Assembly: GCA_038321865.1 (NCBI GenBank)
Contig: JBBQFH010000003.1
Location: 78,773-142,772 of the forward strand
Length of the DNA stretch: 64,000 nucleotides
DNA from: Gemmatimonadales bacterium
GTDB taxonomy: Bacteria; Gemmatimonadota; Gemmatimonadetes; Gemmatimonadales; GWC2-71-9
Direction of reading: 5' to 3'
Position numbers and translations under genes: made by a program. Shown here piece after piece: positions 491-27,483 of this stretch; within the stretch, counting starts at the first letter, position 1; every line of letters begins with the position of its first letter. Below the pieces are notes generated by a model, which saw only the letters and a list, made by a program, of their open reading frames with translations, was not told the origin of the DNA and did no database searches.

Positions 491-3400
491 ATGCTTCCCT
501 CCCTGATGCTGCTGGCCGCGCTGGCCGGCGCTCCGCAGGACACCGCCCATATCGTCATCGTCGCCACCACCGATGTCCACGGCCGTGCCACCGCGTGGGA
601 ATACGTCACCGGCAAGCCATTCGGCGGCGGGCTGGTGCGCGTGGCGACGATCGTGGACTCCCTCCGGAAGCGCTATCCCGGGCAGGTGATCGTCGCCGAC
701 GCCGGCGACCTGCTCCAGGGCGATCCGTTCGCCGCCTACTACGCGACCGTCGGCCCGCGGGATCCCAACCCGATCGTCGAGGCCATGAACCTGGTAGGCT
801 ACGATGTGGCCACGCTGGGCAATCACGACTTTAACTGGGGCCTCCCGTTCCTGCGGCGCTCGCTGGCCGGCGCCGCCTTTCCGTATGTGAGCGGCAACGT
901 CTACGACCTGCCGGCCGACACGCTGCTCTATCCGGCCTACGTCGTGCTCCGGCGCCAGGGCGTCCGGGTCGGCGTCGCGGGGTTCACGACGCCGGGCGTG
1001 ATGCTGTGGGACCGTGAGAACGTGAAGGGGAAGGTCCGGGTGGGCCGGGTGTCGGCGAGCGCCGGGGCGGTGCTGCGGAACCTCGCCCGCGACGCCGATC
1101 TTCGCATCGTGCTGATTCACAGCGGCATGGACGGGGCGGCGTCCTACGACACGACGGGTGTCGGCGACGAGAACGTCGCCGCGACGCTCGCCGCGCTGCC
1201 GTCGAAGCCCGACCTCGTGCTGGTGGGCCATTCCCACCGCGAGATGCGCGACTCGGTGATCAGCGGCGTGCACTTCATCCAGCCGAAGAACTGGGCGCAG
1301 CAAGTATCGGTCGCCCACGTGGACCTGATCCGTGACCGAGGCCGCTGGCGGGTCATGCGGATCACCGGTGAGCTGGTGCCGCTGGCCGATGTGCCGCCGG
1401 CTCCGCGCCTGGCCGCCCGGCTGGAAGCCGCCCAGCGTGACGTCCAGGCCTGGGTGGCCCAGCCGCTCGGCCAGGCGGCAGGGGCGATGCGCTCCACCTT
1501 CGGCCGCGCGGAGCCGACGGCGATCGCCAACTTCGTGAATGACTTCCAGCGGAAGCACACCGGCGCCCAGCTGTCCACCACCTCGATCTTCAACACGGCG
1601 TCGGGGTTCAGCGCCGGACCGATCCGGCTGGCCGACGTCGCCGGCGTCTATCCCTACGAGAACACCCTGCGGGCCGTGCGCATCAGCGGCGACGCGCTCA
1701 AGGCGTTCCTGGAGCAGAGCGCCCGCTACTACCGGAGCGATCCGTCGGGCCACGTCTCGATCAACGACAGCATCGCCGGGTACAACTTCGACATCGTCGG
1801 CGGCGCGACGTACGACATGGACCTCCGGCTTCCGGTGGGCAGCCGCATCCGGAACCTCGCGGTCGGCGGACGGCCGGTCGCGTCCACCGACACCTTCACC
1901 TTCGCCGTCAACAGCTACCGGCAGGCGGGCGGCGGCGGATACGACATGCTGCGCGGCGCGCCCGTCGTCTATGACCGGGGCGAGAACATCCGGGACCTGC
2001 TGGTGGACGAGATCCGCGCCCGCGGCACGATCGACCCGGCCGCCTACACCCGCTCGGAGTGGCGGATCCTAGGCGATGAGGCCGCGGGCGAGGCGCACGC
2101 GCTCGCGGGCGGGGCACCCCCGGTCCGGGCCAGCACACCCCGCACGCCGGCCGACAGCATCATCCTCCGCGTGCTGGCGATCAGCGACTTCCACGGCGCG
2201 CTCCTGCCCAGGGTGCAGAGCTGGTCCAAGGGCCGGCTGGCCGGCGGCGCCGCCGCGCTCAAGGCACGGATGGATACCGCCGCCGCGCATTGCGGCGGCT
2301 GCCCGGTGCTCCGGGTCGATGCCGGAGACGAGATGCAGGGCACCCTCGAATCCAATCTGTTCTACGGGCGCTCGACGATCGAGGTGTTCAACCGCATGGG
2401 GATCCAGGCCGCCGCGGTCGGGAACCACGACTTCGACTGGTCGGTGGATACCCTCCGCCAGCGGATGGCGCAGTCGCGATATCCCTGGCTGGCGTCGAAT
2501 ATCTTCGACTCGACCACCGGCCGCCGGCCGGTCTGGGCGGTGCCGTACCGGATCCTGACTGCGGGCAAGCTGCGGGTGGCGGTGATCGGATGGATCACGC
2601 CGGAGACGAAGACGATCGTGAAGGCGGAATTCGTGCGCGGGCTCCGCTTCGCGGCCGGCGCGGCCGCCATCCGCGACGTGATCGCCGACGTGCAGGCGCA
2701 GAAGCCCGACGTGACCATCCTGGTGGCGCATTCCGGGGCGGTGTGCGACTCGCTCGGCTGTTCCGGCGAGATTCTCGACCTTGCCCGGGAACTGGGGCCG
2801 GCGGTGGACATGATCGTCGCGGGGCACACGCACCGGCTGGTGAACGTAGCCGTCGGGGGCGTGCGGGTCGTCGAGGCGCGGAGCAGCGGCACCGCGCTCG
2901 GCGTGCTCGACCTGCTCCGGACGCCGGTGGGAAGCCGGCTGGAGCAGAGCCGGGTCGAGTCGGTGTACGACGATGAGGTCACCCCGGACACCGCCGTCGC
3001 CCGCATCGTGGCCGCGTACGCGGCGCGCACCGATACGCTGGCCCGGCGCGTCGTGGCGCAGATCAAGCTCCCGCTCCCCAAGACGGGGGACCAGGGGCAG
3101 TATCCGCTCGGCAATCTGATCGCGGACGCGCAGCGCAACGTCGCCCGCGCCGACCTCGCGCTGATGAACAACGGCGGCATCCGGGGAACGGGACTGGCGG
3201 CCGGCCCGCTCACCTACGGCCAGCTCTTCCAGTTGAGCCCGTTCCAGAACAACGTCGTGCGCGTGACTACCACCGGCGCGGTGATTCGGCAGGTGATGGA
3301 ACATGCGCTCGAGTCCGGCCGACCGGATGCGCATATCTCGGGCTTTACGGTGCGCTACGATACGATGAAGCTGGCCGGGCATCGGGTGATGGAGATGCGA

Positions 3401-10400: not shown

Positions 10401-11596
10401 GGTGGCTCTCCGGCCTCGCCGCCCTGACGTCGCTGGCCGGCTGCCGCGGTGAGGCGCCGGGTGCGCCGTCGGCGCAGCAGCTGGTCGACAGCCTCCGTCC
10501 CGCGGTCGAGCGTGCGGCGGCCCTCCGGTTCCGCACGCCGCCCCGCGTCGCGATGCGGAGCCGGGAGCAGGTCCGCGCCTACCTCGCGGCCAAGCTCGAC
10601 GCGGAGCTGCCCGAGTCGCGCGCGCGGGGCATGGAGGCGGCGTACCGGCTCTTCGGCCTGCTGCCGGACAGCGTGCGCCTGCGGCCGCTGCTGCTGGACC
10701 TGTTGAGCGAACAGGTCGTCGGGTACTACGACGCCGATTCGGCGATGCTGTTCGCCGTCAACGGGAGCCCGCGGGAACAGCTCCGCCTGGTCATGGCGCA
10801 CGAGATGGTGCACGCGCTGCAGGGCCAGTACCTGCCGCTCGACTCGATCTTCCACGACCTCCACAGCAACGACCGTCTCACCGCCGCCCAGGCGATTCTC
10901 GAAGGGCAGGCGACCTACGCCTCCATCGGCATTTACGCGCCGCCGGGCAAGGACCTGTCGCACGACGACGACTTCTGGTCGCTGTACGGCGACCAGGTGC
11001 GCGAGCAGCAGGCGGCGATGCCGGTGTTCGCCCGGGCACCGCTGGTGGTGCGGGAGGGGCTGATCTTTCCCTATGTGGCCGGTGCGGAGTTCATGCACTG
11101 GTGGGTGTCGAAGTCGGGTCACGCCGACACGCTGCCCTACGGGCCGCGGATGCCGGCGTCCACCGAGCAGGTGCTCCACCCCGACCGCTACGCGCGCGGT
11201 GATCGCCCGGTCGAGATCGCCTTCGACTCGGCGGCGGCCGATTCCGTCCTGCACGATGACGTGTTGGGGGAAATGGAGTTGCGGGTGCTGGTGGCGCAGG
11301 ACGCCGGCGTGGCGCAGCCCAGTGACCTGACGGCGCTGGGGTGGGGCGGAGACCGGTACCGCGTGGTCGCGACGCCGGCGGGGCCGGCGCTCGTCTGGTA
11401 TCTCATCTTCGATGACGCAGCGAGCACCGATCGGTTTCTCCGTCAGGCGGGCGAGGAGCTCGCGACGACCCGGCGGCCCGGATACCTGGCGAAACTGGAT
11501 CGCGTGACGCTCTCCGGCCGGGCCGCGCTGCGGTTCGTGCTTGCGCCCGCAGGATGGTCGCGCTGGTCCGCGTTGCCGGCCGCTACAATCCGATGA
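10397..11596 (+). CDS. Putative zinc-metallopeptidase lipoprotein (HEXXH...E)
   Basis: Lipobox LAGC, AHEMVHALQ, downstream EGQA. ATGA overlap with pilD. Confidence 0.7.
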   Translation: MRWLSGLAALTSLAGCRGEAPGAPSAQQLVDSLRPAVERAAALRFRTPPRVAMRSREQVRAYLAAKLDAELPESRARGMEAAYRLFGLLPDSVRLRPLLLDLLSEQVVGYYDADSAMLFAVNGSPREQLRLVMAHEMVHALQGQYLPLDSIFHDLHSNDRLTAAQAILEGQATYASIGIYAPPGKDLSHDDDFWSLYGDQVREQQAAMPVFARAPLVVREGLIFPYVAGAEFMHWWVSKSGHADTLPYGPRMPASTEQVLHPDRYARGDRPVEIAFDSAAADSVLHDDVLGEMELRVLVAQDAGVAQPSDLTALGWGGDRYRVVATPAGPALVWYLIFDDAASTDRFLRQAGEELATTRRPGYLAKLDRVTLSGRAALRFVLAPAGWSRWSALPAATIR

Positions 11597-13148
11597 GCTT
11601 CCCCAGCCAGAAGGCGCCGAAGCCGAAGAGTCCCCCGAGCACATAGCCGATCCTGACGATCAGGTCGAGCTCCTTCTGGCTGACGTCGCGGATCAGCCGC
11701 TCGACCCGTTCGATCGGCAGATCGTTCACCTTCTGCTCGATGATTTCCTGCACCCTGATCTGCTGCACCAGCCGCGGGATCTGCGCCTGCACCCACCTCC
11801 ATGCCTCGTCGATCACGCCTGACCGCAGCGACGCCGTCATCTCCGGGCCGATCCACTCGGCGGGGCGGCCGATCGGCTGCTCGAGCAGGCGATCCACCAG
11901 TCCGCGCACCACGGTCTCGACCATGCGTTGCCCCTGGTCGCTGGCCAGGACGCCGGACGCGAACATCGCCACCTTGTCGCCGCGGACGCCGGTGAGCAGG
12001 TCGCCCCAGGTCCGCCGCTCGAGCGCCTGCATCGCCCGGTCGGCGGCGGCGTCGACGACGCGCCGGGTCCCGGGCTCCCGCGCGATCCTGACGAGCCAGT
12101 CGCCAAGTGACTCGCTCACGCCGGTGCGGCGCTCGTCGCCCAGCCGGGCCAGCCGCTCGCTCGTCGGCACCAGCAGGAAGTTGATCACCGCTTCGCGCAC
12201 CGCCCGGGCCAGCTGCTCCCGCATCTCGGGGGCGTCGAAGGCCGCCGCGAAGCGGTCGAAGCCCTCGTGCTCGAACCCGTCCACCAGCCGCTCGATCGTG
12301 CGGTCGGTGACCATCAGCTTGGCCAGCAGCCGCTCGTGCAGCATCATCTCTCGCACCGAGCTGTCGAACGCATCGCGGAGCGCCGCCTCGATCCGGCCGC
12401 GCGCTTCCGGATCGCTCAGCAGCGCGCCCAGACGGTCGAGTGCCACGGGGATGTAGTCGGTGATGGCCTGTTCGATCGCGCCGATGAACCCGGCGGGCAG
12501 GCGGCTCAGGAGGGGCCGGTCGTCACCGGCGAGCTGTTCCGACTGGGTGGCGACGAAGCGGCGGAGCGTGCTCTCGAGCTCGTCGCCTTCGACGAACTGG
12601 CCGACCAACTCGTCCACCTTGCGCCGGATCTTCTCGTGCCGCTCGGCGGTCAGGACCTCCGCGATGGGCCGGTCCGCCACCTCCTGCCGCACCCGTTCCA
12701 GCCACCCGGCCATCTGCTCGATCCCCTCGGCCGAGCGGAGATAGTCGGCCAGCCGCTCCGCCACCCGCGGGGCGACTGACGCCAGTGCCCGGTCGAACGC
12801 CTGACTGACGGTCGGACTCAGGTGCGAGCGCAGCGAGCCCCGGTCCTGATCCACGATCGCGTCGAACATCCGTCCGATCGCGTCGGCGAAGGTATCGCGG
12901 ACGGCTGGCGCGTTGAGCCGCGCATGCAGGTCCTCGGACGTGAGCAACCGCTCACCCACGGTTTTCGCGATGCTGTGCGCCAGCCGGGCCTTGTTCTTGG
13001 GCAGGGCGCCCTGGATCTTGAACGGCCCCCAGCCGCGTCGTTCGTAGGGACGGAAGAGCAGAAAGATCGACGTGGTGTCGGTCATGCCGCCGGCGACCGA
13101 GGCAACGGCGGTGGTGAAGGCCATCTCCCAGAAGGTGTGCTGGTCCAT
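11583..13148 (-). CDS. DUF445-family membrane-anchored protein
   Basis: N-terminal GGMTD...LFRP...QGALPKNKARLA and C-terminal KELDLIVRIGYVLGG around a long helical middle. Confidence 0.85.
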   Translation of the reverse strand: MDQHTFWEMAFTTAVASVAGGMTDTTSIFLLFRPYERRGWGPFKIQGALPKNKARLAHSIAKTVGERLLTSEDLHARLNAPAVRDTFADAIGRMFDAIVDQDRGSLRSHLSPTVSQAFDRALASVAPRVAERLADYLRSAEGIEQMAGWLERVRQEVADRPIAEVLTAERHEKIRRKVDELVGQFVEGDELESTLRRFVATQSEQLAGDDRPLLSRLPAGFIGAIEQAITDYIPVALDRLGALLSDPEARGRIEAALRDAFDSSVREMMLHERLLAKLMVTDRTIERLVDGFEHEGFDRFAAAFDAPEMREQLARAVREAVINFLLVPTSERLARLGDERRTGVSESLGDWLVRIAREPGTRRVVDAAADRAMQALERRTWGDLLTGVRGDKVAMFASGVLASDQGQRMVETVVRGLVDRLLEQPIGRPAEWIGPEMTASLRSGVIDEAWRWVQAQIPRLVQQIRVQEIIEQKVNDLPIERVERLIRDVSQKELDLIVRIGYVLGGLFGFGAFWLGKLIGL

Positions 13149-13177
13149 GCGCGGAAAGTAAGGGGGGCGGTGTAGCG

Positions 13178-13203
13178 GCCGCATCGGTGATGGTACAGTT
13201 TGA
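13178..13203 (+). repeat. Left target duplication (13178-13185) and left terminal IR GGTGATGGTACAGTTTGA (13186-13203)
   Basis: Read directly. The IR starts GGTGATG, like IS1-family GGnnnTG ends. Confidence 0.9.
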
Positions 13204-13240
13204 ATTCGCGGCCCCTAGCCGGAAGTGCTAACTTAGGGGT

Positions 13241-13456
13241 ATGAGCAAGAAAGCCACGCCCGCCCGGCCCCGCGATACGAACCAGCTGGCCGCGTTCGTC
13301 GGCGGGATCGCCACGGAGCAGCGGGAGGAGCCAGAGGCGCCGGAGACGGCCCCAGGCGCCCGTAAGCGGGGCGAGGCGAGGGCGGCGAAGCTCAGCCCGG
13401 AGGAACGGAAGCGCATCGCCCAGAAGGCGGCGAGGGTCCGCTGGGCGAAGGAGTAA
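13241..13456 (+). CDS. Small basic protein (RPRD-N-QLA...RAAKLSPEERKRIAQKAA-RW type) next to the left IR
   Basis: 71 aa, Lys/Arg-rich helical C-terminus. Extended -10 TGcTAACTT lies 6 nt before the ATG. Confidence 0.8.
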   Translation: MSKKATPARPRDTNQLAAFVGGIATEQREEPEAPETAPGARKRGEARAAKLSPEERKRIAQKAARVRWAKE

Positions 13457-13568
13457 CACAGCAACCGCGCCCCGATGGTCTGGGGCGCCGCGCTCGGGAA
13501 CATCAGCAGTTAGCTAGTGTTTTTTCATCTACCACCTCGGCTGTGCCTCCTGGCACGGTTGGGGTCCA

Positions 13569-13613
13569 GAGCGGCCAGAGACGCCTTACTAGGGGCGTTG
13601 TCTCTGGCCGTTC
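13569..13613. terminator. Strong hairpin between convergent genes
   Basis: GAGCGGCCAGAGAC (13569-13582) pairs with GTCTCTGGCCGTTC (13600-13613): 14 bp with one G-U. No clear poly-U tail. Confidence 0.55.
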
Positions 13614-13618
13614 GCCTT

Positions 13619-14278
13619 TCAAGCCTCAGGCGCGCTTCCGAGCAAGATGCGTTCGATGCGGTCATAGAGCCGCTCACTGGCCTCCGGGTCCTCCATCGCC
13701 TCCGCTCGCTTCATCAGGAACTCGACGTACCTGTTGCGAGCATCCTGCATCGCGTTCTCGGCGTCGCCACCTCCCGCGGCGCCGTCATCCTCTGTGCCGT
13801 TGTTGGCGCGTCGCGCGCCCCGCCGCGCGAAGCCAGTGGGGACCTTAAAGTTCTTACTGACAGCAACGCCCGCGAACTTCGCCGCGTGAAGGTAGAACGT
13901 CATGGCCTTGCGCAGCGTGTCCCCAGCTAGCCCCTTGAAAGTCTCTGCAAGCTGGTTCGTGGTGCCGTTGATAGTGCCCAGTCGAACCGCCTCGCCGTAG
14001 TGCGTTTCAAGTAGCCCCTTTATCACTCGCCCCCGGTCCTTCTCGTTGTTCACCAGCTCCTGAAAAATCGGCGTCACTTCGCCACCTGGCTTGATTAGGC
14101 CGAAGAACTTCAGCGCCGCCAATACCTGCGTCTTTTGGCCCTCCGAGCCCCCGAGGGCGCTCCGGTCAATCCGAGGTGGGACGGCGCCCTTGAACTTGTC
14201 CAAGACATTCAGGACGGTTCTAAACGAGGTGTACGGCCAAGTCACCGCGTTCGGCTCCTGCGTGCGCTCTTCAGCCAT
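13619..14278 (-). CDS. DUF5343-like hypothetical protein (element cargo)
   Basis: PYTSFRTVLNVL...PPRIDRS...QVLAALKFFGLI pattern recalled for DUF5343. GGAGGG SD upstream of the ATG at 14278. Confidence 0.7.
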   Translation of the reverse strand: MAEERTQEPNAVTWPYTSFRTVLNVLDKFKGAVPPRIDRSALGGSEGQKTQVLAALKFFGLIKPGGEVTPIFQELVNNEKDRGRVIKGLLETHYGEAVRLGTINGTTNQLAETFKGLAGDTLRKAMTFYLHAAKFAGVAVSKNFKVPTGFARRGARRANNGTEDDGAAGGGDAENAMQDARNRYVEFLMKRAEAMEDPEASERLYDRIERILLGSAPEA

Positions 14279-14326
14279 AACAAACCCTCCATCGGGCACG
14301 GGATACGGGCAGCATCGATAAGAGAC

Positions 14327-14355
14327 AGGATAGCGATTGAATACCACGCCGTCAA
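14327..14355 (-). promoter_or_regulatory. Sigma70-type promoter for the DUF5343-like gene
   Basis: TTGACG-17 bp-TATCCT on the minus strand. Confidence 0.7.
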
Positions 14356-14430
14356 TGGTACGGACGAAATTTGGTGGTACGACGTAGGGGCGCTATTTTG
14401 GTACTCCACTGCTGCATTGGAGGTTTTTGT

Positions 14431-14646
14431 ATGCGCGAAGTGAAGGCAGGACAATCAGTTACAGTGACAACAGCCGACAATCGGGCAGTCAAGCGGAGAG
14501 CCATTAGCGGCGTCGTCAACGGCGACGATTTCCCAGTGATCTGGGTTTGCGACGACACGGAATACGCTGTCGCGAAGCGGGAAGGCCGCTTACCGATAGG
14601 TGTTCCGTGGCCTTCGGATTGCGTTCGGTCGAATGATACCACTTGA
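14431..14646 (+). CDS. Small hypothetical protein (71 aa, element cargo)
   Basis: GGAGGT SD at 14419-14424. Sequence MREVKAGQSVTV...GDDFPVIWVC...GVPWPSDCV. Confidence 0.65.
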   Translation: MREVKAGQSVTVTTADNRAVKRRAISGVVNGDDFPVIWVCDDTEYAVAKREGRLPIGVPWPSDCVRSNDTT

Positions 14647-14671
14647 CAGACGGGCAGTAGTCAAGCATATT
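14642..14671 (+). promoter_or_regulatory. Transposase promoter with overlapping palindrome
   Basis: TTGACA (14643-14648)-17 bp-CATATT (14666-14671). The inverted repeat CTTGAC-N12-GTCAAG covers the -35 and spacer. Confidence 0.65.
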
Positions 14672-14714
14672 CGTTCAGTTAGAGTTTACCATAGTAAACC
14701 GCTGAGCGAGCCAA

Positions 14715-15578
14715 ATGAACCGCCTGAGCACCGAACGTCGCACCCAGATTCTTGCCGCCCTCTGCGAAGGTGCATCGGTGAGCGCCGCCGCGCGCCAGAG
14801 CGGCGCGTCCAAGGTGACGGTCCTCAAGTTGTTGGCCGAGGTCGGGCAGGTGTGCCTAGATTACCAACGCGCGACGCTGGTTGATCTGCCGTGCAAGACG
14901 ATTCAGGCCGACGAAATTTGGTCGTTTATCGCCTGTAAGGAGCGCAACGTTCCCCGTGATGAAAAGGGCCGTGGTCGCGGGGACTGCTGGACCTGGACGG
15001 CGCTGTGCGCCGATACGAAGCTGGTTCCCTGCTGGCACCTCGGCACGCGCGATGCCGATGCCGCCAAGCTATTCATGGAGGATTTGGCATCGCGTCTCGC
15101 GACCCGCGTTCAACTCACGACAGATGGCCACCGCGCCTATCTGTCCGCCGTGGAAAAGGCGTTTGGGTGGAACGGTGTGGACTACGCGATGCTAGTCAAA
15201 CTCTACGGTGCACCGGAGGGGTCAGGCGTACGTCGGTACAGCCCGCCCGAAATTCTCGGCATTGAGCGGCATTGGGTGATGGGGCAGCCAGAGGAGAAGC
15301 TCGTTTCGACGAGCTACGCCGAACGACAGAACCTGACCATGCGCATGAACGTGCGACGGCTGACGCGGCTGACCAACGGCTTCTCCAAGAAGATCGAGAA
15401 CCATGGGCACGCGATGGCGCTGTATTTCATGCACTACAATTTTTGCCGGAAGCACGAGACGCTGACCAAGGCGAAGGGTGGCGTCCACACGACCCCGGCG
15501 ATGGCCGCTGGCGTCGCGGATCGCGTCTGGAAGATCGCCGATATTGTTGCCCTGCTGGAAGCCAAGGAGACCGCATGA
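14715..15578 (+). CDS. IS1-family-like DDE transposase (single ORF)
   Basis: N-terminal HTH (EGASVSAAARQSGASKVTVLK), catalytic D in ADEIWSF, D in TTDG, E in YAERQNLTMR, then HYNFCR and TTPAMAAG. Confidence 0.92.
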   Translation: MNRLSTERRTQILAALCEGASVSAAARQSGASKVTVLKLLAEVGQVCLDYQRATLVDLPCKTIQADEIWSFIACKERNVPRDEKGRGRGDCWTWTALCADTKLVPCWHLGTRDADAAKLFMEDLASRLATRVQLTTDGHRAYLSAVEKAFGWNGVDYAMLVKLYGAPEGSGVRRYSPPEILGIERHWVMGQPEEKLVSTSYAERQNLTMRMNVRRLTRLTNGFSKKIENHGHAMALYFMHYNFCRKHETLTKAKGGVHTTPAMAAGVADRVWKIADIVALLEAKETA

Positions 15579-17107
15579 CGCGTCGCCCGTCGTCCGTGGT
15601 TGATACGCGCGTTATCTACTGCGGGGACTGCTTGGAGCGGCTACGGACGCTGCCGGATGCGTGCGTGGACCTGATCTACATCGACCCGCCGTTTAACTCC
15701 AATCGCAATTACGAGGTGTTTTGGGGCGAGACAAAGGAGAAGCGCGCGTTTGACGACCGTCACGCGAGCACCCAGGCGTACATCGACTACATGCGCCCTA
15801 GGTGCGTCGAGATGGCCCGCGTGCTGAAACAGACCGGCAGCTTCTATTACCACTGTGACTGGCACGCTTCGCACTACGTGAAGGTCATGCTCGACCAGAT
15901 TCTCGGCGAGGACAACTTTCTAAACGAGATCATCTGGCAACGCTCCGATACTCACAACGACGCTAAGAATCAATTTCCGGTTGTGAGTGATTCCATCTTC
16001 CTGTACGGCGGGGGCGGCAATCACTTCTTTCAACCGCAGTACACCGACTATCCCGAAAAGACGTTGCGCGAGTGGTACTTATGGCTAGACCTGCCCGACG
16101 GCACAACGCGGCGCATGACTGAGATAGAGTGCAAGACGCAGGAAATACCTCCAGGCGCGCGACGATTCAACACGGGTGACATGACCAGTCCTAACCCGCG
16201 TCCGAATCTCATGTACGAGTACAAGGGATATTCGTACCCGGCGAAGGGCTGGCGATACTCGCGTGAGACGATGGCAGAGCTTGACGCGAAAGGCTTGTTG
16301 TTGTTTCCGGCCGAGAAAACAGGTCGGATCATGCGCAAGCGGTATCTCGATGAACAAAAGGGGCCGATGCTGGGGAATGTGTGGACCGACATTGACCAGT
16401 TGCGTGCGAACGACGCCGAGCGGCTCGGATATCCCACTCAGAAGCCGCTAGCTCTGCTCGACCGAATCATTCAGGCGAGCAGCAAGCCGAACGATATCGT
16501 GATTGACGCCTTCTGCGGCTGCGGGACGGCGCTAGTCTCGGCCCAACTGCTCAAGCGTCAATGGATCGGCATAGACATCTCTCCAACCGCGTGCCGCGTC
16601 ATGGCCAAGCGCTTGCGGGATGTATGCGAGTTGCGCGAGGATGAATCCCTGTGGCGAGCTGGGCGGGGGCTTGTTGTCCGTGACCTGCCGTGGAGCGAGG
16701 ACCAGCTGCGGAAGCTGCCGCCTTTTGAGTTTGAGAATTGGGCCGTGATCGCGCTCGGCGGGATTCCAAACAAGGCGCAGGTCGGCGACATGGGGATTGA
16801 CGGGCGGATTTATCCGGTTTCAGCGGTCCCGGCCAAGGCCGACACGAAAGACCCGGCTTTCGATTTCATGGATATTTGGTACCCGATCCAGGTCAAGCAG
16901 CGCGACAAGGTGGGACGGCCCGACATCGACTCCTTTGAAGCTGTCATGACGCGCACCGACCGGACCAAGGGCTTCTTTGTGTCCTTCGCCTTTTCACGGG
17001 ATGCGCTGGCCGAGATCGACGCCTTTTTTCGCAAGTCTGGAAAGGTCATTATCCCCCTGACCGTCCGCGAAATCCTAGACGAGCAACTGGCCGCGAAACT
17101 CGCCTAG
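15575..17107 (+). CDS. Beta-class N6A/N4C DNA methyltransferase fused to a C-terminal Mrr-like PD-(D/E)xK nuclease domain
   Basis: DLIYIDPPF (motif IV) precedes YPTQKP and DAFCGCGT (motif I). The C-terminus has FENWA...GDMGIDG...IQVK...GRPDID...KGFFVSF. ATGA overlap with the transposase stop. Confidence 0.88.
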   Translation: MTRRPSSVVDTRVIYCGDCLERLRTLPDACVDLIYIDPPFNSNRNYEVFWGETKEKRAFDDRHASTQAYIDYMRPRCVEMARVLKQTGSFYYHCDWHASHYVKVMLDQILGEDNFLNEIIWQRSDTHNDAKNQFPVVSDSIFLYGGGGNHFFQPQYTDYPEKTLREWYLWLDLPDGTTRRMTEIECKTQEIPPGARRFNTGDMTSPNPRPNLMYEYKGYSYPAKGWRYSRETMAELDAKGLLLFPAEKTGRIMRKRYLDEQKGPMLGNVWTDIDQLRANDAERLGYPTQKPLALLDRIIQASSKPNDIVIDAFCGCGTALVSAQLLKRQWIGIDISPTACRVMAKRLRDVCELREDESLWRAGRGLVVRDLPWSEDQLRKLPPFEFENWAVIALGGIPNKAQVGDMGIDGRIYPVSAVPAKADTKDPAFDFMDIWYPIQVKQRDKVGRPDIDSFEAVMTRTDRTKGFFVSFAFSRDALAEIDAFFRKSGKVIIPLTVREILDEQLAAKLA

Positions 17108-17108
17108 C

Positions 17109-17134
17109 TCAAACTGTACCAGTACGGCCGCATC
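17109..17134 (-). repeat. Right terminal IR TCAAACTGTACCAGTACG (17109-17126) and right target duplication (17127-17134)
   Basis: Reverse complement is CGTACTGGTACAGTTTGA. Flank identity extends to 10 bp (CGGCCGCATC), so the exact boundary is uncertain by 1-2 bp. Confidence 0.88.
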
Positions 17135-17141
17135 CCATCGC

Positions 17142-17170
17142 TTGCTCTCGATGTCCAACCCGTTTAACAT
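17142..17170 (+). promoter_or_regulatory. Sigma70-type promoter of the ffh operon
   Basis: TTGCTC-17 bp-TAACAT, ending 9 nt before the ATG. Confidence 0.6.
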
Positions 17171-17179
17171 TCAGGGCTT

Positions 17180-18520
<1,341 letters not shown>

Positions 18521-20406: not shown

Positions 20407-21060
20407 ATGATCCGCCCCACGCTGGCGCGCGAGCGCGAAGCCTGGGCGGAGGCGCACCTGCTCGTCGGAGTGGACGAGGTCGGCCGCGGCCCGCTGGCAG
20501 GTCCAGTGGTAGCCGCGGCCGTCGTGTTTCCCGCCAGCTGCCGGAGCGTTCCCGGCGTCCGCGACAGCAAGACCCTGCCGATCGAAGCCCGCACCCGACT
20601 CGCCCTGTTGATCCGCCGCCGGGCGCTCGGAGTCGCCCTCGGCGCCGCGTCGGTGCGGGAGATCGACCGGCTCAACATCCGCGTCGCCACCGCGCTCGCC
20701 ATGCGGCGCGCCCTCGTGCGCCTGATCCGCCGCACCCTGTCCGACGGCCGGCCCTACCGGATCATCATCGACGGGCTGCCGCTGCCGGAGGTGGGCTACA
20801 CCCACCGTGCGCTGGTGGATGGCGACGCCCTCTGCATGTCCATCGCCGCGGCGGGCATCGTGGCGAAAACCGTGCGCGACCGGCTCATGCACCGGCTGGC
20901 GGCGCGGCATCCGCTCTACGGCTGGCACACCAACGTGGGCTACGGGACGCTGGCGCATCAGGAAGGCATCCGCGCCCACGGGCCGACCCGGCACCATCGC
21001 CTGACGTTCGCTCCGCTGGCGCAGCTGCCGCTGGATCTGGAATCGTTCATCGCGAACTGA
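20407..21060 (+). CDS. rnhB: Ribonuclease HII
   Basis: GVDEVGRGPLAGPV, DSK, DG, SIAAAGIVAK. Confidence 0.96.
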   Translation: MIRPTLAREREAWAEAHLLVGVDEVGRGPLAGPVVAAAVVFPASCRSVPGVRDSKTLPIEARTRLALLIRRRALGVALGAASVREIDRLNIRVATALAMRRALVRLIRRTLSDGRPYRIIIDGLPLPEVGYTHRALVDGDALCMSIAAAGIVAKTVRDRLMHRLAARHPLYGWHTNVGYGTLAHQEGIRAHGPTRHHRLTFAPLAQLPLDLESFIAN

Positions 21061-21094
21061 GCGCCACTTTCCCGCTCCTTCAGACTGGACCGTC

Positions 21095-23566
21095 ATGTCA
21101 CTCCGCCTGGCCCCGTTCATCGGGCTCCTTTTCGCCGGCACCGTCGCCGCACAGACGCCGGTCCCAGCTCCGGTTCTCGTCTCGAACGCCGAGCGGATGG
21201 CGAACGACCGCTACACCCGCTCCCACGACTACGATCTCGTGCATCAGCGGATCGAGCTGAGCCGGTTCGACTGGGACTCACTGGGATTCGACGGACGGGT
21301 GGCGACGACACTGATCGCCCTCCGGCCCGGACTCGATTCCGTAGTGCTGGATGCCGGGAAGCTGCTCCAGCTGCGGCGGGTCACCGCCGGCACGCGGGCG
21401 CTCACCTATGCCCAGCGTGGCGATACCCTTGTGATCCGGCTGGCACGCCCCGCCACCTTCCGCGATACGGTCCGCTTCACGATCGACTACCACGCCCGCA
21501 TCGAGAATGGCCAGGGGCTGACCTTCAAGAAGGCCGAAGCGGGCCGCGCGCACTACCCGCAGCAGATCTGGAGCCAGGGCGAGGATCACAACAATCACTT
21601 CTGGTTTCCGACCTACGACTTCCCCAACGACAAGATGACCTGGGAGCTCGTCGCCACGTTGCCGTCGGTGTATACCGCCGTCTCCAATGGCCGCCTGGTG
21701 AGCGACACACGCGCCGGCGGGATGCGGACGATGACGTGGTCCCAGGAGAAGCCGTCCGCGACGTACCTGGTATCGCTCGTCGTGGCGCCCCTGGCCAAGA
21801 TCGCCGACAGCTGGCGCGGCATGCCGGTCGATTACTACGTCTACCACGAGGACAGTGCGCTGGCGCGCCCGCTGTTCCGCGTGACACCCGACATGATCGA
21901 GGTCTACTCCCGCCTGACCGGCATACGGTATCCGTGGGCCAAGTACGCCCAGACCACCGTGGCCGACTTTTTCGGCGGCATGGAAAACGTCAGTGCCACG
22001 ACACTGGTGGACTGGCTTCCGGATGCCCGCGCCTATCAGGATCGTCCCTGGTACCAGTACATCCTGATTCCGCACGAGCTGGCGCACCAGTGGTTCGGTG
22101 ACTACGTGACGACCGAGAACTGGGCCAACATGTGGCTTAACGAGGGCTTTGCGGAGTTCATGCCTGGGCAGTACTGGAACGCGAAGCTCGGCCGTCACGC
22201 GGAGGACGATTACTACCTCGACGAGTACCGCCAGTTCCTGCGGATCGATGCGCGGCGGCGGATGCCGCTCGCCGCGCTCGAATCGAACAACATCTATCCC
22301 CGCGGCGCGCTGGTGCTCCGCATGCTGCAGCGCCAGCTCGGCGAGCAGCCCTTCTGGGCCTCGATCAATCATTTCCTGACGACCCACGCGTTCGACAACG
22401 CGGTCACCGACGACCTCCGGCAGTCGGTGCTGGCTGCGACTGGGCGCAATCTCGACTGGTTCTGGGATGAATGGGTGTATCAGGCGGGGTATCCGGAGTT
22501 CACCGTCACGCAGAGCTACGATGCCGGCGCGCGTCGGCTCACCCTCCTGATTCGGCAGACCCAGGCCGATACCGCTACGGCGGATACCACGGGGCTTCGC
22601 TACTCGACGCCGAGGGCCTTCCGGATGCCGGTCACCATTCGCGTGGGCACCGCGCAGGGTGACGTGATCGGCCACGGCGAGCTGCGCACCCGCGAGGATC
22701 CGATCACCGTGAACGGCGTCCAGTCCGAGCCGACGATGGTGGTGTTCGACGACGGCAACACGATCCTGAAGCGTCTCACCTTCGACCAGCCCACGGCCTC
22801 GCTCGCGATGCAGCTCAGCCGGGACCCGGATCTGTGGAACCGTACATGGGTGATCACTGAGCTCGGCAAGCGGACGGCGGACTCGGCGGCCGCAACCGCC
22901 CTGGCCGGCGCGGTCCGCGGCGCCGACTACTACGGCACGCGCGCGGAAGCGGCGTCGGCGCTGATGGGTTTTCCGTCGGCAGTCGCGCTGCCCGTGCTGG
23001 ACGCCGCCCTGCGCGACACCTCTGCGCTGGTTCGGCGCGCCGCGGTCGCGGCGATCGGCGGGCTGTCCGGCGGCGATCCGGCCGCCCTCGCGGCCGTGCG
23101 GAATGCCTGGGACCATGACGCGAGCTATGACGTGCGCGCGGCGGCGCTCGGCGCGATCGCGCGACGCGATACGGCGGGTCGCGCGGCGATCATCCGCACC
23201 GGTCTCACCACCCCGTCCTATCAGGATGCGATCCAGAATGCCGCGCTAGGCGCCGCGGGGTTTTTCGCCGGCGCGGTACCCGCGTCGGAGCTGGAGCCGC
23301 TGCTCGGTACCACGCTGAATGCCGCCTTCGTGCTCGCCGGCATGGCGTCGAGGGGGGACACCGCCGCGATGCAGATCCTGGTGCGGCACCTTGATGAGGA
23401 TCGCGCCTGGGTGCGCGACTGGTCGCTCCAGGCGATCCGGCAGGGGATGCCTGCGGCGCTCGCGCTCGCCCAGCTCGATGCGGCAACCACCAGTCTCCGG
23501 CACGCCGACACGAAATCCGCCGTGGCGCGAGCGATCGCCGAGCTGAGGAAGCCGGCGGCCCCATGA
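21095..23566 (+). CDS. Secreted M1-family aminopeptidase with C-terminal HEAT repeats
   Basis: Signal peptide, GGMEN, HELAHQW...NEG, and Ala-rich HEAT-like repeats. Confidence 0.92.
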   Translation: MSLRLAPFIGLLFAGTVAAQTPVPAPVLVSNAERMANDRYTRSHDYDLVHQRIELSRFDWDSLGFDGRVATTLIALRPGLDSVVLDAGKLLQLRRVTAGTRALTYAQRGDTLVIRLARPATFRDTVRFTIDYHARIENGQGLTFKKAEAGRAHYPQQIWSQGEDHNNHFWFPTYDFPNDKMTWELVATLPSVYTAVSNGRLVSDTRAGGMRTMTWSQEKPSATYLVSLVVAPLAKIADSWRGMPVDYYVYHEDSALARPLFRVTPDMIEVYSRLTGIRYPWAKYAQTTVADFFGGMENVSATTLVDWLPDARAYQDRPWYQYILIPHELAHQWFGDYVTTENWANMWLNEGFAEFMPGQYWNAKLGRHAEDDYYLDEYRQFLRIDARRRMPLAALESNNIYPRGALVLRMLQRQLGEQPFWASINHFLTTHAFDNAVTDDLRQSVLAATGRNLDWFWDEWVYQAGYPEFTVTQSYDAGARRLTLLIRQTQADTATADTTGLRYSTPRAFRMPVTIRVGTAQGDVIGHGELRTREDPITVNGVQSEPTMVVFDDGNTILKRLTFDQPTASLAMQLSRDPDLWNRTWVITELGKRTADSAAATALAGAVRGADYYGTRAEAASALMGFPSAVALPVLDAALRDTSALVRRAAVAAIGGLSGGDPAALAAVRNAWDHDASYDVRAAALGAIARRDTAGRAAIIRTGLTTPSYQDAIQNAALGAAGFFAGAVPASELEPLLGTTLNAAFVLAGMASRGDTAAMQILVRHLDEDRAWVRDWSLQAIRQGMPAALALAQLDAATTSLRHADTKSAVARAIAELRKPAAP

Positions 23567-24945
23567 GCCGTCTCGGCATCATGGTGCTGGTGGCGGCCGG
23601 ACTCTGCGGTCCGGCCCGCGCCACCGGGCAGGTGCCGTCCGACACTGCCCTGGTTAGGTCGGTCGACTCGATGGCTCGCGCCATGCTCGCGTCGGGTCCG
23701 GTCGCCGGGATGTCGATTCTGGTCCGCCGAGGCAGCCATACGATCGTGGACAAGGGGTACGGACTCGCCGATGTGGAGAACGGCGTGGCCGCCACGCCGC
23801 AGAGCGTCTACCGCATCGGCTCGATCACGAAGCAGTTCACCGCAGCGGCGGTGATGCAGCTGGCGGAGCAGGGGAAGCTGTCGCTTGACGATGACATCAC
23901 GAAGTATCTGCCGACTCTCCCGGTGCAGGGACGCCACGTGCTCATCCGGCAGCTCCTCAATCACACCTCGGGCATCAAGAGCTACACCGGACTCGGCCCA
24001 AGGTGGTTCCGGCTCCTGCCGCTGGAGCTGTCGCCGGACAGCATCGTGGGGCTGGTCGCGCATGAGCCCTTCGACTTCGAGCCCGGTACCAACTGGCGAT
24101 ACGACAATACCGGGTACGTCATCCTGGGCATGCTGATCGAGAAGGCATCGGGGCAGAAGTACGCTGACTACCTGCGCGATCACGTGACCGGGCCTCTCGG
24201 GCTGAGCGCCACGGTGTATTGCGACGAGCGGCCGATCATCCCGCACCGCGCCACCGGCTACGAGGTCGAGAGTGGAAAGCTGGTGAACGACACACCGATC
24301 CATATGTCACAGCCGTTCGCGGCCGGCGCGCTTTGCTCGACCACCGGTGATCTCGCCAGCTGGTCGCGGGCGCTCGCCGGTGGCCGGGTCGTCAGCGCCG
24401 CATCATACGCGCGGATGTCGACGCCCGACACGCTGACGACCGGACGGCGCCTCGCCTACGGCTTCGGCCTGGGCGCCGGCGAGCTCGAGGGTCATCATGT
24501 GGTGTCCCACGGAGGCGGGATTCCGGGGTTCGTGTCGATGCTGGCCACCTATCCGGCGGACAGTCTCACCGTTGTGGTGTTGGTCACTACGGAGGGTCCT
24601 GCGGCTGATCTGCTGGCAGGGCGAATTGCCCGGCGCGCGCTGGGCATCCGCGCGCCCGTCGTGCGGGCGGCGCCGCTGACCCCGGGCGAACGCGCGGCCG
24701 TCGTCGGAACCTATCGGCAGGGCGCGGATTCGGTGCGGGTGTATGAGGCAGGCGGGAAGTTGATGATGGCCGAGCCCCACGAATCGCCAGTGGAGCTGAT
24801 TCCGATCGCGGGCGGGAGGCTGATGGCCGCTGGCCGGCCCGACGACAGGCTGACGTTCGAGGTCACCGCCGGGCGAATGACGCTCCGCATCGACTACGCG
24901 TCGGAAGCGCCGTTTCGCGGGGAGCGCGTCGGGCGGCCGCGCTAA
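23563..24945 (+). CDS. Secreted serine hydrolase (beta-lactamase class C / PBP-like)
   Basis: SxxK (SITK), YxN (YDN), HGG. Confidence 0.9.
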   Translation: MSRLGIMVLVAAGLCGPARATGQVPSDTALVRSVDSMARAMLASGPVAGMSILVRRGSHTIVDKGYGLADVENGVAATPQSVYRIGSITKQFTAAAVMQLAEQGKLSLDDDITKYLPTLPVQGRHVLIRQLLNHTSGIKSYTGLGPRWFRLLPLELSPDSIVGLVAHEPFDFEPGTNWRYDNTGYVILGMLIEKASGQKYADYLRDHVTGPLGLSATVYCDERPIIPHRATGYEVESGKLVNDTPIHMSQPFAAGALCSTTGDLASWSRALAGGRVVSAASYARMSTPDTLTTGRRLAYGFGLGAGELEGHHVVSHGGGIPGFVSMLATYPADSLTVVVLVTTEGPAADLLAGRIARRALGIRAPVVRAAPLTPGERAAVVGTYRQGADSVRVYEAGGKLMMAEPHESPVELIPIAGGRLMAAGRPDDRLTFEVTAGRMTLRIDYASEAPFRGERVGRPR

Positions 24946-25643
24946 CGGCTGGCGAGCAGCTCGGTTGCCAGCGACTGGAGCGCTGCCGCGGCTGACTTCT
25001 CGTCTCGGCCGTGCGGCATCAGATGGATAGCAGTGGTTCCGGACAGGCGCTCGATCGCCGCGGCGTTGCCGCCGGTCGAACCGTCGGGTTGCTCGGGCGC
25101 ATTGAGCACGATGCCCGCCACCGGCACACCGCCGATTTCGAGTGCGCTCAGCGTAAGCAGTGCATGGCTGATGGTGCCGAGCCGATCAAGTCCCACCACG
25201 AGGGCCCGGGCCTCAAGCGCCTGCGCCAGATCTACGAGGTTCCAGTCCCACCCAATCGGCGCCAGCAGCCCGCCGGATCCCTCGACGATGGCCACATCGA
25301 CCCCCGCCGCGTAGCCTTCGATCCACATCAAAATGTCATCGAAATCCAGCGTGATTCCCTCCCGCTCGGCCGCCACGGCGGGCGCCACCTGCGCCGCGAA
25401 GCGCAGGAGAGCTGTGGCAGGCTCCCGCTGGCCGGTCGCGCGGGCGAGCAGCACCCCGTCCTCGCCGCCCGGCGCCGACTCGTAGCCGGTCTCGACTACC
25501 TTCATCGCGACGACGCGGTGCCCGGCCGCGATGAGCGCGCGCGCCAGCGCCGCGGCGATCCAGGTCTTGCCGACTCCGGTGTCGGTGCCGGTGACGACGA
25601 GCACGTTCGAACGTGCTCGATTCGGTGAGACGGCGACAGTCAC
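24942..25643 (-). CDS. bioD: Dethiobiotin synthase
   Basis: VTGTDTGVGKT, VEGSGG, LGTISH. Confidence 0.93.
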   Translation of the reverse strand: MTVAVSPNRARSNVLVVTGTDTGVGKTWIAAALARALIAAGHRVVAMKVVETGYESAPGGEDGVLLARATGQREPATALLRFAAQVAPAVAAEREGITLDFDDILMWIEGYAAGVDVAIVEGSGGLLAPIGWDWNLVDLAQALEARALVVGLDRLGTISHALLTLSALEIGGVPVAGIVLNAPEQPDGSTGGNAAAIERLSGTTAIHLMPHGRDEKSAAAALQSLATELLASR

Positions 25644-25773
25644 AATTCACTCCCACACAGAGGCTCGGGGATCCGGAGGGAGACTATCCCGCACAGCGGA
25701 CCCGGGCAAGGCGGCGCACGTCTTGAGTTTGGCCGTGCGGCGTGCGACGTTTGAGCGTCCGCGCTCAGCGGGC

Positions 25774-25846
25774 GGGGGCGTAGCTCAGCTGGTAGAGCAA
25801 GGGACTTTTAATCCCTAGGTCGTGGGTTCGAGTCCCACCGCCCTCA
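25774..25846 (+). tRNA. tRNA-Lys (anticodon TTT)
   Basis: Acceptor stem GGGGGCG/CGCCCTC, D arm TAGCTCAGCTGGTAGAGC, anticodon arm AGGGA-CTTTTAA-TCCCT, T loop GGTTCGAGTCC. CCA is not encoded. Confidence 0.97.
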
Positions 25847-25858
25847 TGAGTGTTCCTC

Positions 25859-25877
25859 CTGCTGACCGCGTCAGCAG
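25859..25877. terminator. Hairpin between tRNA-Lys and the convergent gene
   Basis: CTGCTGAC-CGC-GTCAGCAG. Confidence 0.45.
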
Positions 25878-25880
25878 CTC

Positions 25881-26264
25881 TCAATCGCTCCAACTCAATC
25901 CGATGGTATAGGTTTGGGTGGATCCAATTATGGTCACGACCGTGGCGAGGCCCAGGAATACGAGCCCGGCCGTTCCCAGCACATTCGTCCGGCGGGTCGC
26001 CAGCAGTCGTATATCAGCCAGCGGAAGCCGAACCGCCCCGCGAGGCGAGTCGCCGATGAGCGTGTCCCCGCTGATCCGGGGTTGCGACACGACGATCTCG
26101 CGTGCATCCGCCAGCGTGACGCGAACAAGCACCGGTGGCGTCGTGTCCAATAGCTCCCGGGGGGTCGCTGCTTGTACTCGCCAATTGACGCACCCGGCAA
26201 CCTGCATGACGAGAAGTACGCCGGATGCCGACTTCCGCAGTCCAACCATCGTCGAGTGAGGCAT
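25881..26264 (-). CDS. Hypothetical lipoprotein with C-terminal TM helix
   Basis: GGGAG SD, lipobox-like VAGC, hydrophobic C-terminus. Confidence 0.65.
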   Translation of the reverse strand: MPHSTMVGLRKSASGVLLVMQVAGCVNWRVQAATPRELLDTTPPVLVRVTLADAREIVVSQPRISGDTLIGDSPRGAVRLPLADIRLLATRRTNVLGTAGLVFLGLATVVTIIGSTQTYTIGLSWSD

Positions 26265-26409
26265 CGTGTTCTCCCGGAAAGGGGTGCTCGATCCTACCGG
26301 TGCCGCGTCAAGCGTCAGTCAAGCACATGCCTTCACTGGGTCGATGGCTCCATAACAGCCTCTGTCAGTCCCTTTTTCGGCGCCTCTCATTCAGCGAGCG
26401 AATCAAGTC

Positions 26410-26925
26410 ATGACCCACACAGCCGTACACTCGCACGCCCTCTCCGCCGGCACCCCGGCACCCGACTTCACGCTCCACGCCACTCCCGATCAGCGCACCT
26501 CGCTCGACGAGTTCCGGGGACACCCTGTGATCCTGGCGTTCTACCCCGCCGACTGGAGCCCAGTGTGCGGCGATCAGATGGCGCTGTACAACGAGCTGCG
26601 CTCGGAGTTCCGCCGTTTTCACGCGGAAGTCATCGGCATCTCCGTCGACGGTGCCTGGTGTCACGCGGCGTTCAAGGAGGCGCGGCACCTGCATTTGCCA
26701 CTGCTCAGCGACTTCGAGCCGAAGGGGGCCGTGGCGCGTCAGTACGGCGTCTATCGCCCGGACGACGGCACGACGGAGCGCGCCCTGTTCGTCATTGATG
26801 GGGACGGAATCATTCGCTGGAGCTTCGTGTCTCCGGTCGGGGTAAACCCCGGCGCCGATGGCATCCTCGAGGCGCTGGAAGCGCTGGGCGATGCCGACCC
26901 CGTCGTCCCCGCACGGGCCCAATGA
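26410..26925 (+). CDS. Peroxiredoxin (AhpC/TSA, AhpE-like)
   Basis: APDFTL, FYPADWSPVC, GISVD, LLSDFEPKG, ERALFVID. Confidence 0.9.
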   Translation: MTHTAVHSHALSAGTPAPDFTLHATPDQRTSLDEFRGHPVILAFYPADWSPVCGDQMALYNELRSEFRRFHAEVIGISVDGAWCHAAFKEARHLHLPLLSDFEPKGAVARQYGVYRPDDGTTERALFVIDGDGIIRWSFVSPVGVNPGADGILEALEALGDADPVVPARAQ

Positions 26926-27476
26926 GCCCGGGTGGCCTGGCGCCGCCGGTCGGCCAGCCGGATCACGTTCAGGGAGCGGAGGACGCCGCCATCACCCTTG
27001 TCGAGTATGGGGACTACGAGTGTCCGCACTGCGGCCGCGCCTACCCGATCATCAAGCTTGTGCAGCGGCGCCTTGCCGCCGATCTGCGATTCGTCTTCCG
27101 CAACTTCCCGCTGGGCGACGCCCATCCGCACGCCCAGCACGCCGCTGAAGCGGCCGAATCGGTGGCCGCGCACGCCGGCGATCAAGCCTTCTGGGCGATG
27201 CATGATCTGATCTACCAGCATCAGCAGGACGGTCCCGATGCCCTGGACGACGCGTCGCTGGTTGCGCTGGCGCGCCGCGCCGGCGCTGATGCGCATGCGG
27301 TCGCGGATGATCTGCGGTTTGGGCGTTATGCGGCGCGAGTGCGGGAGGACTTCATGAGCGGCGTGCGCAGCGGGGTGAACGGCACGCCGACCTTCTTCAT
27401 CAATGGCATTCGGCACGATGGTCCGTGGGACGAGGAGAGCTTGGTTGCGGCGCTCCAGGCAGCGGCCGAGCGCTAG
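26922..27476 (+). CDS. DsbA-family thioredoxin-fold protein
   Basis: EYGDYECPHC, FRNFPL, GVNGTPTFFING. Confidence 0.92.
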   Translation: MSPGGLAPPVGQPDHVQGAEDAAITLVEYGDYECPHCGRAYPIIKLVQRRLAADLRFVFRNFPLGDAHPHAQHAAEAAESVAAHAGDQAFWAMHDLIYQHQQDGPDALDDASLVALARRAGADAHAVADDLRFGRYAARVREDFMSGVRSGVNGTPTFFINGIRHDGPWDEESLVAALQAAAER

Positions 27477-27483
27477 AGGTCCG

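Follow-up and report, generated by a model that had tools for sequence, protein, structure and literature searches.

The DNA considered here, called the window below, is a stretch of 64,000 nucleotides from contig JBBQFH010000003.1 of a Gemmatimonadales bacterium (assembly GCA_038321865.1). Between a DUF445 gene and ffh it holds an IS1-family element of 3,941 bp (13186-17126) with five open reading frames (ORFs), each open throughout and each with homologues. The element is bounded by two inverted repeats (IRs) and a short direct repeat, and it contains, from left to right, a small basic ORF, a DUF5343-like gene, a second small ORF, a transposase gene and a gene in which an amino-methyltransferase is fused to a nuclease domain (Table 1). 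Its GC content is 0.60, compared with 0.687 in the genome as a whole. An earlier note, made from the letters of the window, had described a 3.9-kb IS1-like cargo transposon with IRs matching at 15/18, an 8-bp direct repeat and five intact ORFs, and on all of these points it proved right: the left IR and the reverse-complemented right IR agree at 15 of 18 positions, and relatives show the same type of IR and the same duplication length. From comparison with these relatives we consider it very probable that the element belongs to a single-ORF branch of the IS1 family and is a unit transposon in which a fixed two-gene backbone carries exchangeable passengers.

Table 1. Features of the element and its flanks (window positions), followed by the TTA-anticodon tRNAs of sister elements (element coordinates).
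Position	Strand	Feature
11583..13148	-	Host DUF445 gene, left flank, uninterrupted
13178..13185		Left target duplication copy, GCCGCATC
13186..13203	+	Left inverted repeat (IRL), GGTGATGGTACAGTTTGA, 18 bp
13241..13456	+	Small basic backbone ORF, 71 amino acids (aa); helix DxxQxAxx[IV][VG]xxAT coded at 13268-13315, basic C-terminal helix
13457..13618		Gap between convergent genes; two hairpins (~13467-13488, ~13573-13609), possible terminators
13619..14278	-	DUF5343-like passenger, 219 aa
14327..14355	-	Predicted sigma-70-like site TTGACG-17-TATCCT facing the DUF5343 gene, consensus match
14431..14646	+	Passenger of an unnamed family, 71 aa
14643..14683	+	Predicted transposase promoter TTGACA-17-CATATT
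14715..15578	+	Single-ORF IS1-family transposase, 287 aa, N-terminal helix-turn-helix (HTH), D66-D137-E203
15575..17107	+	Beta-class amino-methyltransferase fused to an Mrr-type PD-(D/E)xK domain, 510 aa
17109..17126	-	Right inverted repeat (IRR), reverse complement CGTACTGGTACAGTTTGA, 18 bp; terminal C where the family has G
17127..17134		Right target duplication copy, GCCGCATC
17180..18520	+	Host ffh (SRP54), right flank, uninterrupted
921-1009		tRNA of element L007
1107-1180		tRNA of element L060
1558-1643		tRNA of elements L249/L252
259-342		tRNA of element L274

The transposase places the element in the IS1 family. Its triad (D66, D137, E203) is invariant among 14 aligned transposases, the protein passes the cut-off of Pfam DDE_Tnp_IS1 (28.4 bits, cut-off 24.1), and NCBIfam IS1 ranks first at 52 bits, below its own cut-off of 100. 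Three plasmid homologues, 50-58% identical, are annotated as IS1 family transposases. A profile of the family aligns to E. coli InsA over the HTH only, from residue 53, and in E. coli InsB it matches the regions of the first D and of the E, with the triad aligned, in keeping with an InsB-homologous DDE transposase; the distance from the second D to the E is 66 residues here and 25 in InsB (41 longer). No CxxC occurs within the first 80 residues, in agreement with the earlier description of a single-ORF HTH-DDE transposase without a zinc ribbon. The ends agree with the assignment as well. The first seven bases of the left IR are those of the E. coli IS1A left end and fit the GGnnnTG pattern of the family, the right IR fits apart from its terminal C (the consensus of our elements is GGTAGTG), and the duplication of 8 bp falls within the 8-9 bp of IS1 elements. 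The IS1595 family was considered and rejected: NCBIfam IS1595 scored 22 bits against a cut-off of 75, below the IS1 score, and Pfam gave no IS1595 match. The anatomy also fits that of the ISMhu11 group, which Siguier et al. are said to have described in 2009 as lacking the zinc finger, keeping the HTH, having a longer D-E spacing (the second reportedly 40-60 residues longer than in IS1), reaching about 4.6 kb and carrying passengers that include DNA methyltransferases; the points of agreement are the zinc-finger-less HTH, the D-E spacing and the methyltransferase passenger.

E. coli IS1 itself (IS1A, whose ISfinder row is tabulated in PMC10425158) resembles the window element in its GGnnnTG ends, 8-bp duplication and HTH-DDE transposase, and the family profile matches its InsA and InsB. 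The window element is not, however, a classical IS1. Classical members measure 740-1180 bp without passengers (768 bp in E. coli IS1) and have a zinc finger and an InsA/InsB frameshift, the latter described in PMC12428005, whereas the window element spans 3.9 kb, encodes its transposase in one ORF without zinc finger or frameshift, and has a separate small ORF and passengers. With one IS-type transposase and passengers inside one IR pair, it is a transporter IS (tIS), that is, a passenger-carrying IS derivative as this term is defined in PMC9330008.

Homologous loci provide a check on the ends. We retained 80 of the 184 homologous stretches found in a scan of species genomes and searched the loci blindly for an 18-bp IR plus a 7-10-bp duplication. 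At 41 of the 51 homologous loci with full flanks we found an IR of at least 16/18 together with a duplication, while the best IR score in 60 chimeric controls was 15, reached by one of them; the element ends are therefore not a product of chance. If loci are called bounded when the IR reaches 15/18, with the addition of two loci at 14/18 starting GG, 57 of the 80 genome loci are bounded by the same type of IR and a duplication. Among viral contigs (243 matching stretches, 80 kept) the figure is 49 of 80, so that homologous transposases do lie within ends of this type, a check that the earlier note had proposed. The duplication is 8 bp long at 56 of the 57 bounded loci and 9 bp at one, and we set the register of the window duplication at 8 bp for this reason; locally it can also be read as 10 bp, because the right end closes with the dinucleotide that also stands immediately before the left copy.

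Most comparisons below use a set of 64 elements, consisting of the 57 bounded loci, the window element, an element on contig C15 of the same genome and five from G009, G107, G161, G033 and G068. Ten extra regions supplied these five; the others comprised one element already in the set, one whose sequence falls on two contigs, and three regions without an IR pair. The 64 elements range from 1,968 to 6,572 bp and have the end consensus GGTAGTGGnnCAGTTTGA. The twins L028 and L030 are 99.9% alike over 2.44 kb and sit at two sites with different duplications, indicating that whole elements move as a unit with their cargo. Among cultured Alphaproteobacteria, complete copies are carried by plasmids of Mesorhizobium loti (CP050295), Acidiphilium multivorum (NZ_CP041717) and Hoeflea (NZ_CP011481), which makes the family testable now; a fourth plasmid copy in this group has IRs, with duplications that do not match. 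Site-specific targeting was considered and rejected: across 55 target contexts the single trend was a weak A/T bias some 8 bases away, and in all 12 relatives the site of the window copy is free of the element.

The genome of the window contains a second member of the family, which the earlier reading missed. This element (G000:C15:19330-24517, equivalent to L093:1031-6218) is 5.2 kb long, with IRs matching at 17/18 and a 9-bp duplication, and its transposase is 47% identical to that of the window. It carries other defence cargo, with genes for a D12 methyltransferase, an EcoRI-like nuclease and a P63C protein, as well as SocA/Panacea and a small ORF that partners it. A short transposase remnant lies elsewhere in the genome, at 24191-24292 of G000:C34, in surroundings (~21000-28000) that are prophage-like or integrated and include an ORF resembling a serine recombinase. 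In L048, a 6.6-kb member from the survey, a Mutator-type and an IS110-type transposase are nested in the right slot.

Of the three accessory genes that the earlier note had counted as cargo, two are passengers; the third, the 71-aa ORF at the left end, is on comparison best read as a conserved second backbone gene. An ORF of this basic type occurs in 40 of the 64 elements, always 5' of the transposase, and most of the remaining 24 have, close to an end, a small ORF of another kind with the same helix. In these non-basic ORFs the helix is usually C-terminal and stands behind an unrelated domain. A matrix built solely on the basic type returned the motif as its top match and scored 19 of the 24 other elements above the best of 55 flank controls. 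For 45 non-duplicate viral elements that had been held out, 41 scored at least 9.8 for the 16-residue helix, compared with one of 45 flanks. We also searched 151 genomes with both the small ORF and the transposase as queries, excluding the unpublished G081. Eight full-length small-ORF matches were obtained (in published genomes except G000), six of them within 2 kb 5' of a transposase; of the other two, one is on a split contig, with IRs and matching duplications, and one is at a contig end. The codons of the small ORF vary more at third positions than at first and second positions, and the constraint on the helix thus acts at the protein level. A DNA-level recombination site at the motif was considered and is not favoured, synonymous changes being common. 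At least 8,000 proteins make up the family of the basic small ORF, which has no Pfam entry; relatives of the ORF are labelled 'histone H1' or hypothetical in databases.

The layout common to the family is left IR, small ORF, cargo, transposase, optional cargo and right IR, and the cargo differs even between close relatives. Among the 27 pairs in which transposase identity reaches 85% or more, a count that leaves out the twin L030 and three others, five share any cargo family and none shares the full set; these figures are rough because the automatic ORF picker adds spurious frames and dropped the fusion gene of the window. In most close pairs DNA identity is limited to the ends, the small ORF and the transposase. 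On comparison, then, unit movement, the 8-bp duplication, the two-gene backbone and the turnover of cargo emerge as properties of the family.

We examined the cargo with Pfam (150 of 189 candidate ORFs, plus 20 more) and with PADLOC (110 hand-picked ORFs). A toxin-antitoxin (TA) or defence domain was scored directly in at least 22 of 59 elements, the domains being PIN, NYN/HEC-09, HigB with PD-Lambda-2B, YhaV, Gp49, SocA, MqsA-SecB, RmrA, SoFic, GmrSD, HEC-04, Type I specificity and restriction-modification (RM). PADLOC matched 20 of the 110 cargo ORFs and 6 of the 110 nearest flanking ORFs (Fisher p 0.006), in a test for which the cargo had been chosen by hand after the Pfam scan and in which kin are not independent. 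Transfer RNA genes were found in 9 of the 64 elements, and ARAGORN found none in the window element. Four distinct sister elements have, according to ARAGORN, tRNAs with a TTA anticodon (Table 1), which would read the stop codon UAA, and other sister elements have tRNAs with odd combinations of anticodon and body. We saw no link between the cargo tRNAs and the codons or internal TAA stops of the transposases, and the transposases of these four elements yielded no internal TAA target. Two cargo combinations recur. One joins a ClpP-like SDH serine protease to a small ORF upstream of it; it is present in L019, L024, L038 and L039, from two phyla, and is a candidate defence or addiction pair. A cassette of a HigB-like toxin, an HTH-IrrE protein (PD-Lambda-2B-like) and a 155-aa protein is present in L017, L054, L187, L190 and L192, from distant hosts.

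The largest passenger of the window copy is the fusion gene, which overlaps the transposase stop with its start codon and itself stops 1 bp before the right IR. The methyltransferase part has DPPF at residues 37-40 and FCGCG at 313-317 around a variable centre, and the nuclease part has D405, D409, Q439 and K441. Across 26 aligned homologues these four residues and E385 are invariant and the central region varies. When the C-terminal domain was scanned alone it scored 23.7 bits for Mrr_cat, against a cut-off of 21. The methyltransferase-nuclease fusion of the earlier note is thus real, with the motifs of both activities intact on one chain, as in a single-chain RM enzyme. A predicted structure of the fusion matches CcrM, M.MboIIA, M.RsrI and EcoP15I Mod at Z 17-21 (Z 19-21 for CcrM, M.MboIIA and EcoP15I Mod), and for residues 371-510 the best matches of the model are the nuclease domains of FokI, AspBHI, Avs4 and MspJI (Z 5.7-7.0). 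The protein is like beta-class methyltransferases and Type III Mod subunits in its fold and in its motif order, DPPF then FxGxG, with Mrr_cat as the additional C-terminal domain. Type III Mod subunits alone do not cut DNA. By contrast with them, the fusion has intact-looking nuclease residues on the same chain, and no Res helicase-nuclease gene stands beside it, none of the five ORFs being a helicase. The protein family is large (7,998 of 8,000 scored candidates match). In its alignment the centre, at residues ~120-280, takes several mutually unrelated forms, with nearly identical sequence on either side, a pattern suggestive of swapped recognition domains.

For the DUF5343-like protein, a confident model has a tandem winged-helix-like N-terminal domain and a C-terminal helical hairpin. 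Foldseek gave no match for it at E 0.001, and there are weak fold matches to the FokI recognition domain (best Z 6.9), BrxA (Z 6.2) and SspB. The passenger ORF at 14431 has 164 homologous clusters without a named function and is also present in the G009 element. The gap between the convergent genes to the left has a fold z of -2.47 for 13450-13630 on the minus strand, and Rfam gave no match over 13100-17250. The best internal IR-like motif of the element, at 14666-14683, overlaps the promoter-like site of the transposase, which suggests a possible autoregulatory site in the clade of the window copy only; as a family-wide feature it was rejected, since it ranks in the top three in 9 of the 64 elements (2.1 expected), mostly close kin of the window copy. 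In most of the 64 elements the transposase and small-ORF genes often look leaderless, with a TTGACA-17-CATAAT-like site and an ATG ~7-9 nt later. The host gene ffh has a short leader here (17142-17182) and in relatives, like these transposase and small-ORF starts.

The DUF445 gene and ffh are divergent, and they are adjacent without the element in G002, G003 and G004, of the same genus. The spacing there is ~65-145 bp, and the reconstructed empty spacer of the window is 82 bp. The earlier note had proposed looking for the empty site in relatives, and the adjacency of the two genes was found; a single literal GCCGCATC was not, being absent from the spacers of these three genomes, which have diverged. 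In sequencing run X1, possibly the source sample, contigs span both element junctions with zero differences, and a co-occurring relative (45 differences in 296 letters) connects 13155 to 17156 through 26 other letters. No empty site or circle joint of the same strain was seen in the contigs of X1 and X2, assemblies of which drop rare variants.

These data bear on several alternative explanations. That chance repeats or a mis-assembly account for the ends has a negligible probability: a repeat finder did leave these IRs outside its 25 longest in the region, but homologous transposases have the same IR type in the same position, the controls are negative, and the run contigs bridge both junctions. 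The age of the insertion is less clear-cut. The earlier note had argued from the kept duplication that the insertion is recent, and this claim has fared poorly. The genome holds a single copy of the element, its 15/18 IR match is among the six lowest of the 64 elements, and its right end starts with C, as in only two of the 64 (62 right ends start GG). In addition, contigs of run X2 contain a relative, 90-96% alike, whose transposase, fusion gene and right end continue into 30 letters of the same flank (one below the bridging rule of the tool), and which seems to share the right junction with the window copy. An older insertion, now immobile and kept for its cargo or by drift, would fit these observations, and we rate it not far below an even chance; on the other side are the perfect duplication, the open state of all ORFs, the intact catalytic triad and the absence of the element from this site in all 12 relatives examined.

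The function of the genes admits alternatives of its own. The earlier note saw a compact mobile defence or addiction cassette, and movement as a unit with passengers of this kind, typical of the family, is confirmed; it also took the five genes as one coherent undescribed system built on the transposase, and this part is largely refuted and very improbable. The five ORFs are open and tightly packed, the four genes upstream of the fusion occur together in G009 (48, 50, 45 and 75% identical), and transposase, fusion gene and right IR are packed alike in G016, across a contig break. However, the left module of G009 carries different right cargo, profiles that worked on controls found neither transposase nor small ORF at any of 80 metagenome loci of the fusion gene, 51 of which have 900 nt or more of upstream sequence, four of five other DUF5343 loci lack both within 1.5 kb, and a close fusion gene occurs in only one of 300 family genomes. 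Because the element is a mosaic, and because the fusion and DUF5343 genes mostly occur without the transposase, the five genes do not form one system; the window copy is, as judged from these alignments, a mosaic with its left module as in G009 and its right module as in G016. For the fusion protein, we slightly favour a one-chain RM enzyme that would methylate adenines in its site and cut unprotected DNA, serving in phage defence and perhaps addiction. Rather less probably, it may only methylate, as an orphan Mod-like enzyme with the Mrr domain as a binding or dimerisation relic, or its nuclease may read foreign modifications like stand-alone Mrr-type enzymes. In favour of these readings, the full-length fold matches EcoP15I Mod and further beta-class methyltransferases; AspBHI and MspJI, both modification-dependent, are among the nearest nuclease folds; and PADLOC classes the protein as a Type II methyltransferase. 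Invariance of the acidic and QxK residues argues for cutting instead, as does the swapping of the probable site-recognising centre among proteins otherwise 65-83% identical, which selection of the restriction type predicts. Classical IS1 is restrained by InsA, which, in the account of transposition control in PMC12428005, is produced from the transposase's own frame. The single-ORF element has lost this control, and for that reason the small ORF may be a separately encoded regulator of transposition replacing the InsA repressor (made without frameshifting in classical IS1), an interpretation that we find plausible while placing it somewhat short of even. We think it unlikely that the small ORF acts instead as an antitoxin-like or DNA-coating partner buffering toxic cargo, or as an adaptor docking its helix on a host protein. 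Much of the cargo is indeed toxin-like (PIN, NYN, HigB, YhaV, Gp49, Fic), in Acidobacteria-type elements the helix is joined to small domains of unrelated kinds, and the basic C-terminal helix is shared with the N-terminus of P63C-domain cargo proteins; yet the small ORF is retained whatever the cargo, even in the 1,323-bp L274 with little beyond a tRNA and the transposase, and the identity of its helix motif tracks transposase identity (Spearman 0.34, 0 of 500 permutations, with kin not independent). The P63C proteins L093:2967-4088 and L189:6190-7329 start with this basic helix, as does phrog_2384.

As the comparison shows, the transposase and the two 18-bp IRs move whatever lies between them and leave an 8-bp duplication at targets that are close to random. 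In the mechanism that we propose, the HTH would bind the IRs and the DDE triad would cut as it does in IS1. The left IR, the small ORF with its conserved 16-residue helix, the transposase and the right IR form the constant backbone. Passengers occupy slots on either side of the small ORF and downstream of the transposase, and their content, often TA or anti-phage genes, differs from copy to copy; in the window copy the DUF5343 gene and the 71-aa passenger occupy the upstream slot and the fusion gene the downstream slot. The small ORF might regulate transposition in place of InsA, with the reserve expressed above. Copies might exchange cargo by recombination in the backbone genes, with new genes captured illegitimately and trimmed tight, a route for which we put the chances at about even.

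Several observations weigh against this interpretation. Transposition, regulation and defence are predictions from comparison. The right tip of the window copy departs from the family consensus, and the outer anchor of the right slot is the 18-bp IR alone, too short for ordinary homologous recombination. Three of the 45 held-out viral elements score below 0 for the helix, and family-database searches with the small ORF gave no match that names a function. As for the cargo, 90 of the 110 ORFs had no PADLOC match, the fusion can be aligned over its entire length to Type III Mod subunits, and the fold scores of the nuclease domain and the DUF5343 protein are below Z 8, the level at which the tool warns of chance matches.

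The nearest functional parallel is provided by Tn3-family transposons with TA pairs, which, according to Lima-Mendez et al. 2020 (PMC7157771), are likewise unit transposons with exchangeable TA genes at a fixed position; the ParE, PIN and Gp49 types found there also occur in the window family. A resolvase and a res site, on which Tn3 elements rely, were not seen here, and the cargo of the window family is wider (RM, GmrSD, STAND NTPases, tRNAs). Passenger-carrying IS1 elements are a known kind, and the window element is one ordinary mosaic example of its family. We know of no description of ISMhu11-group or tIS elements with an obligatory helix-bearing small ORF, cargo slots on two sides or an enrichment in defence genes, and we found none of this IS1 branch, its small ORF or its defence cargo in a literature search that did not cover subscription journals and ISfinder.

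Tentatively, and with doubt predominating, the branch could be a very large and uncatalogued one built on two genes, a transposase and a needed micro-protein whose 16-residue helix stays constant on changing carrier domains. It might then act as a minimal mobile defence hotspot, with its backbone genes as fixed points at which anti-phage, TA and tRNA passengers are continually swapped among phyla, plasmids and viral contigs; the unannotated passengers might be a mine of immunity genes, and the fusion might be a one-chain restriction enzyme of a new type whose specificity can be swapped. If this reading of the family is true, IS1-type elements would be compact carriers of bacterial immunity, beyond bare insertion sequences. 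Their IRs and duplications, which mark the exact limits of the cargo, would allow candidate defence genes to be listed cleanly through guilt by association, and the micro-protein would represent a new and testable kind of transposition control.

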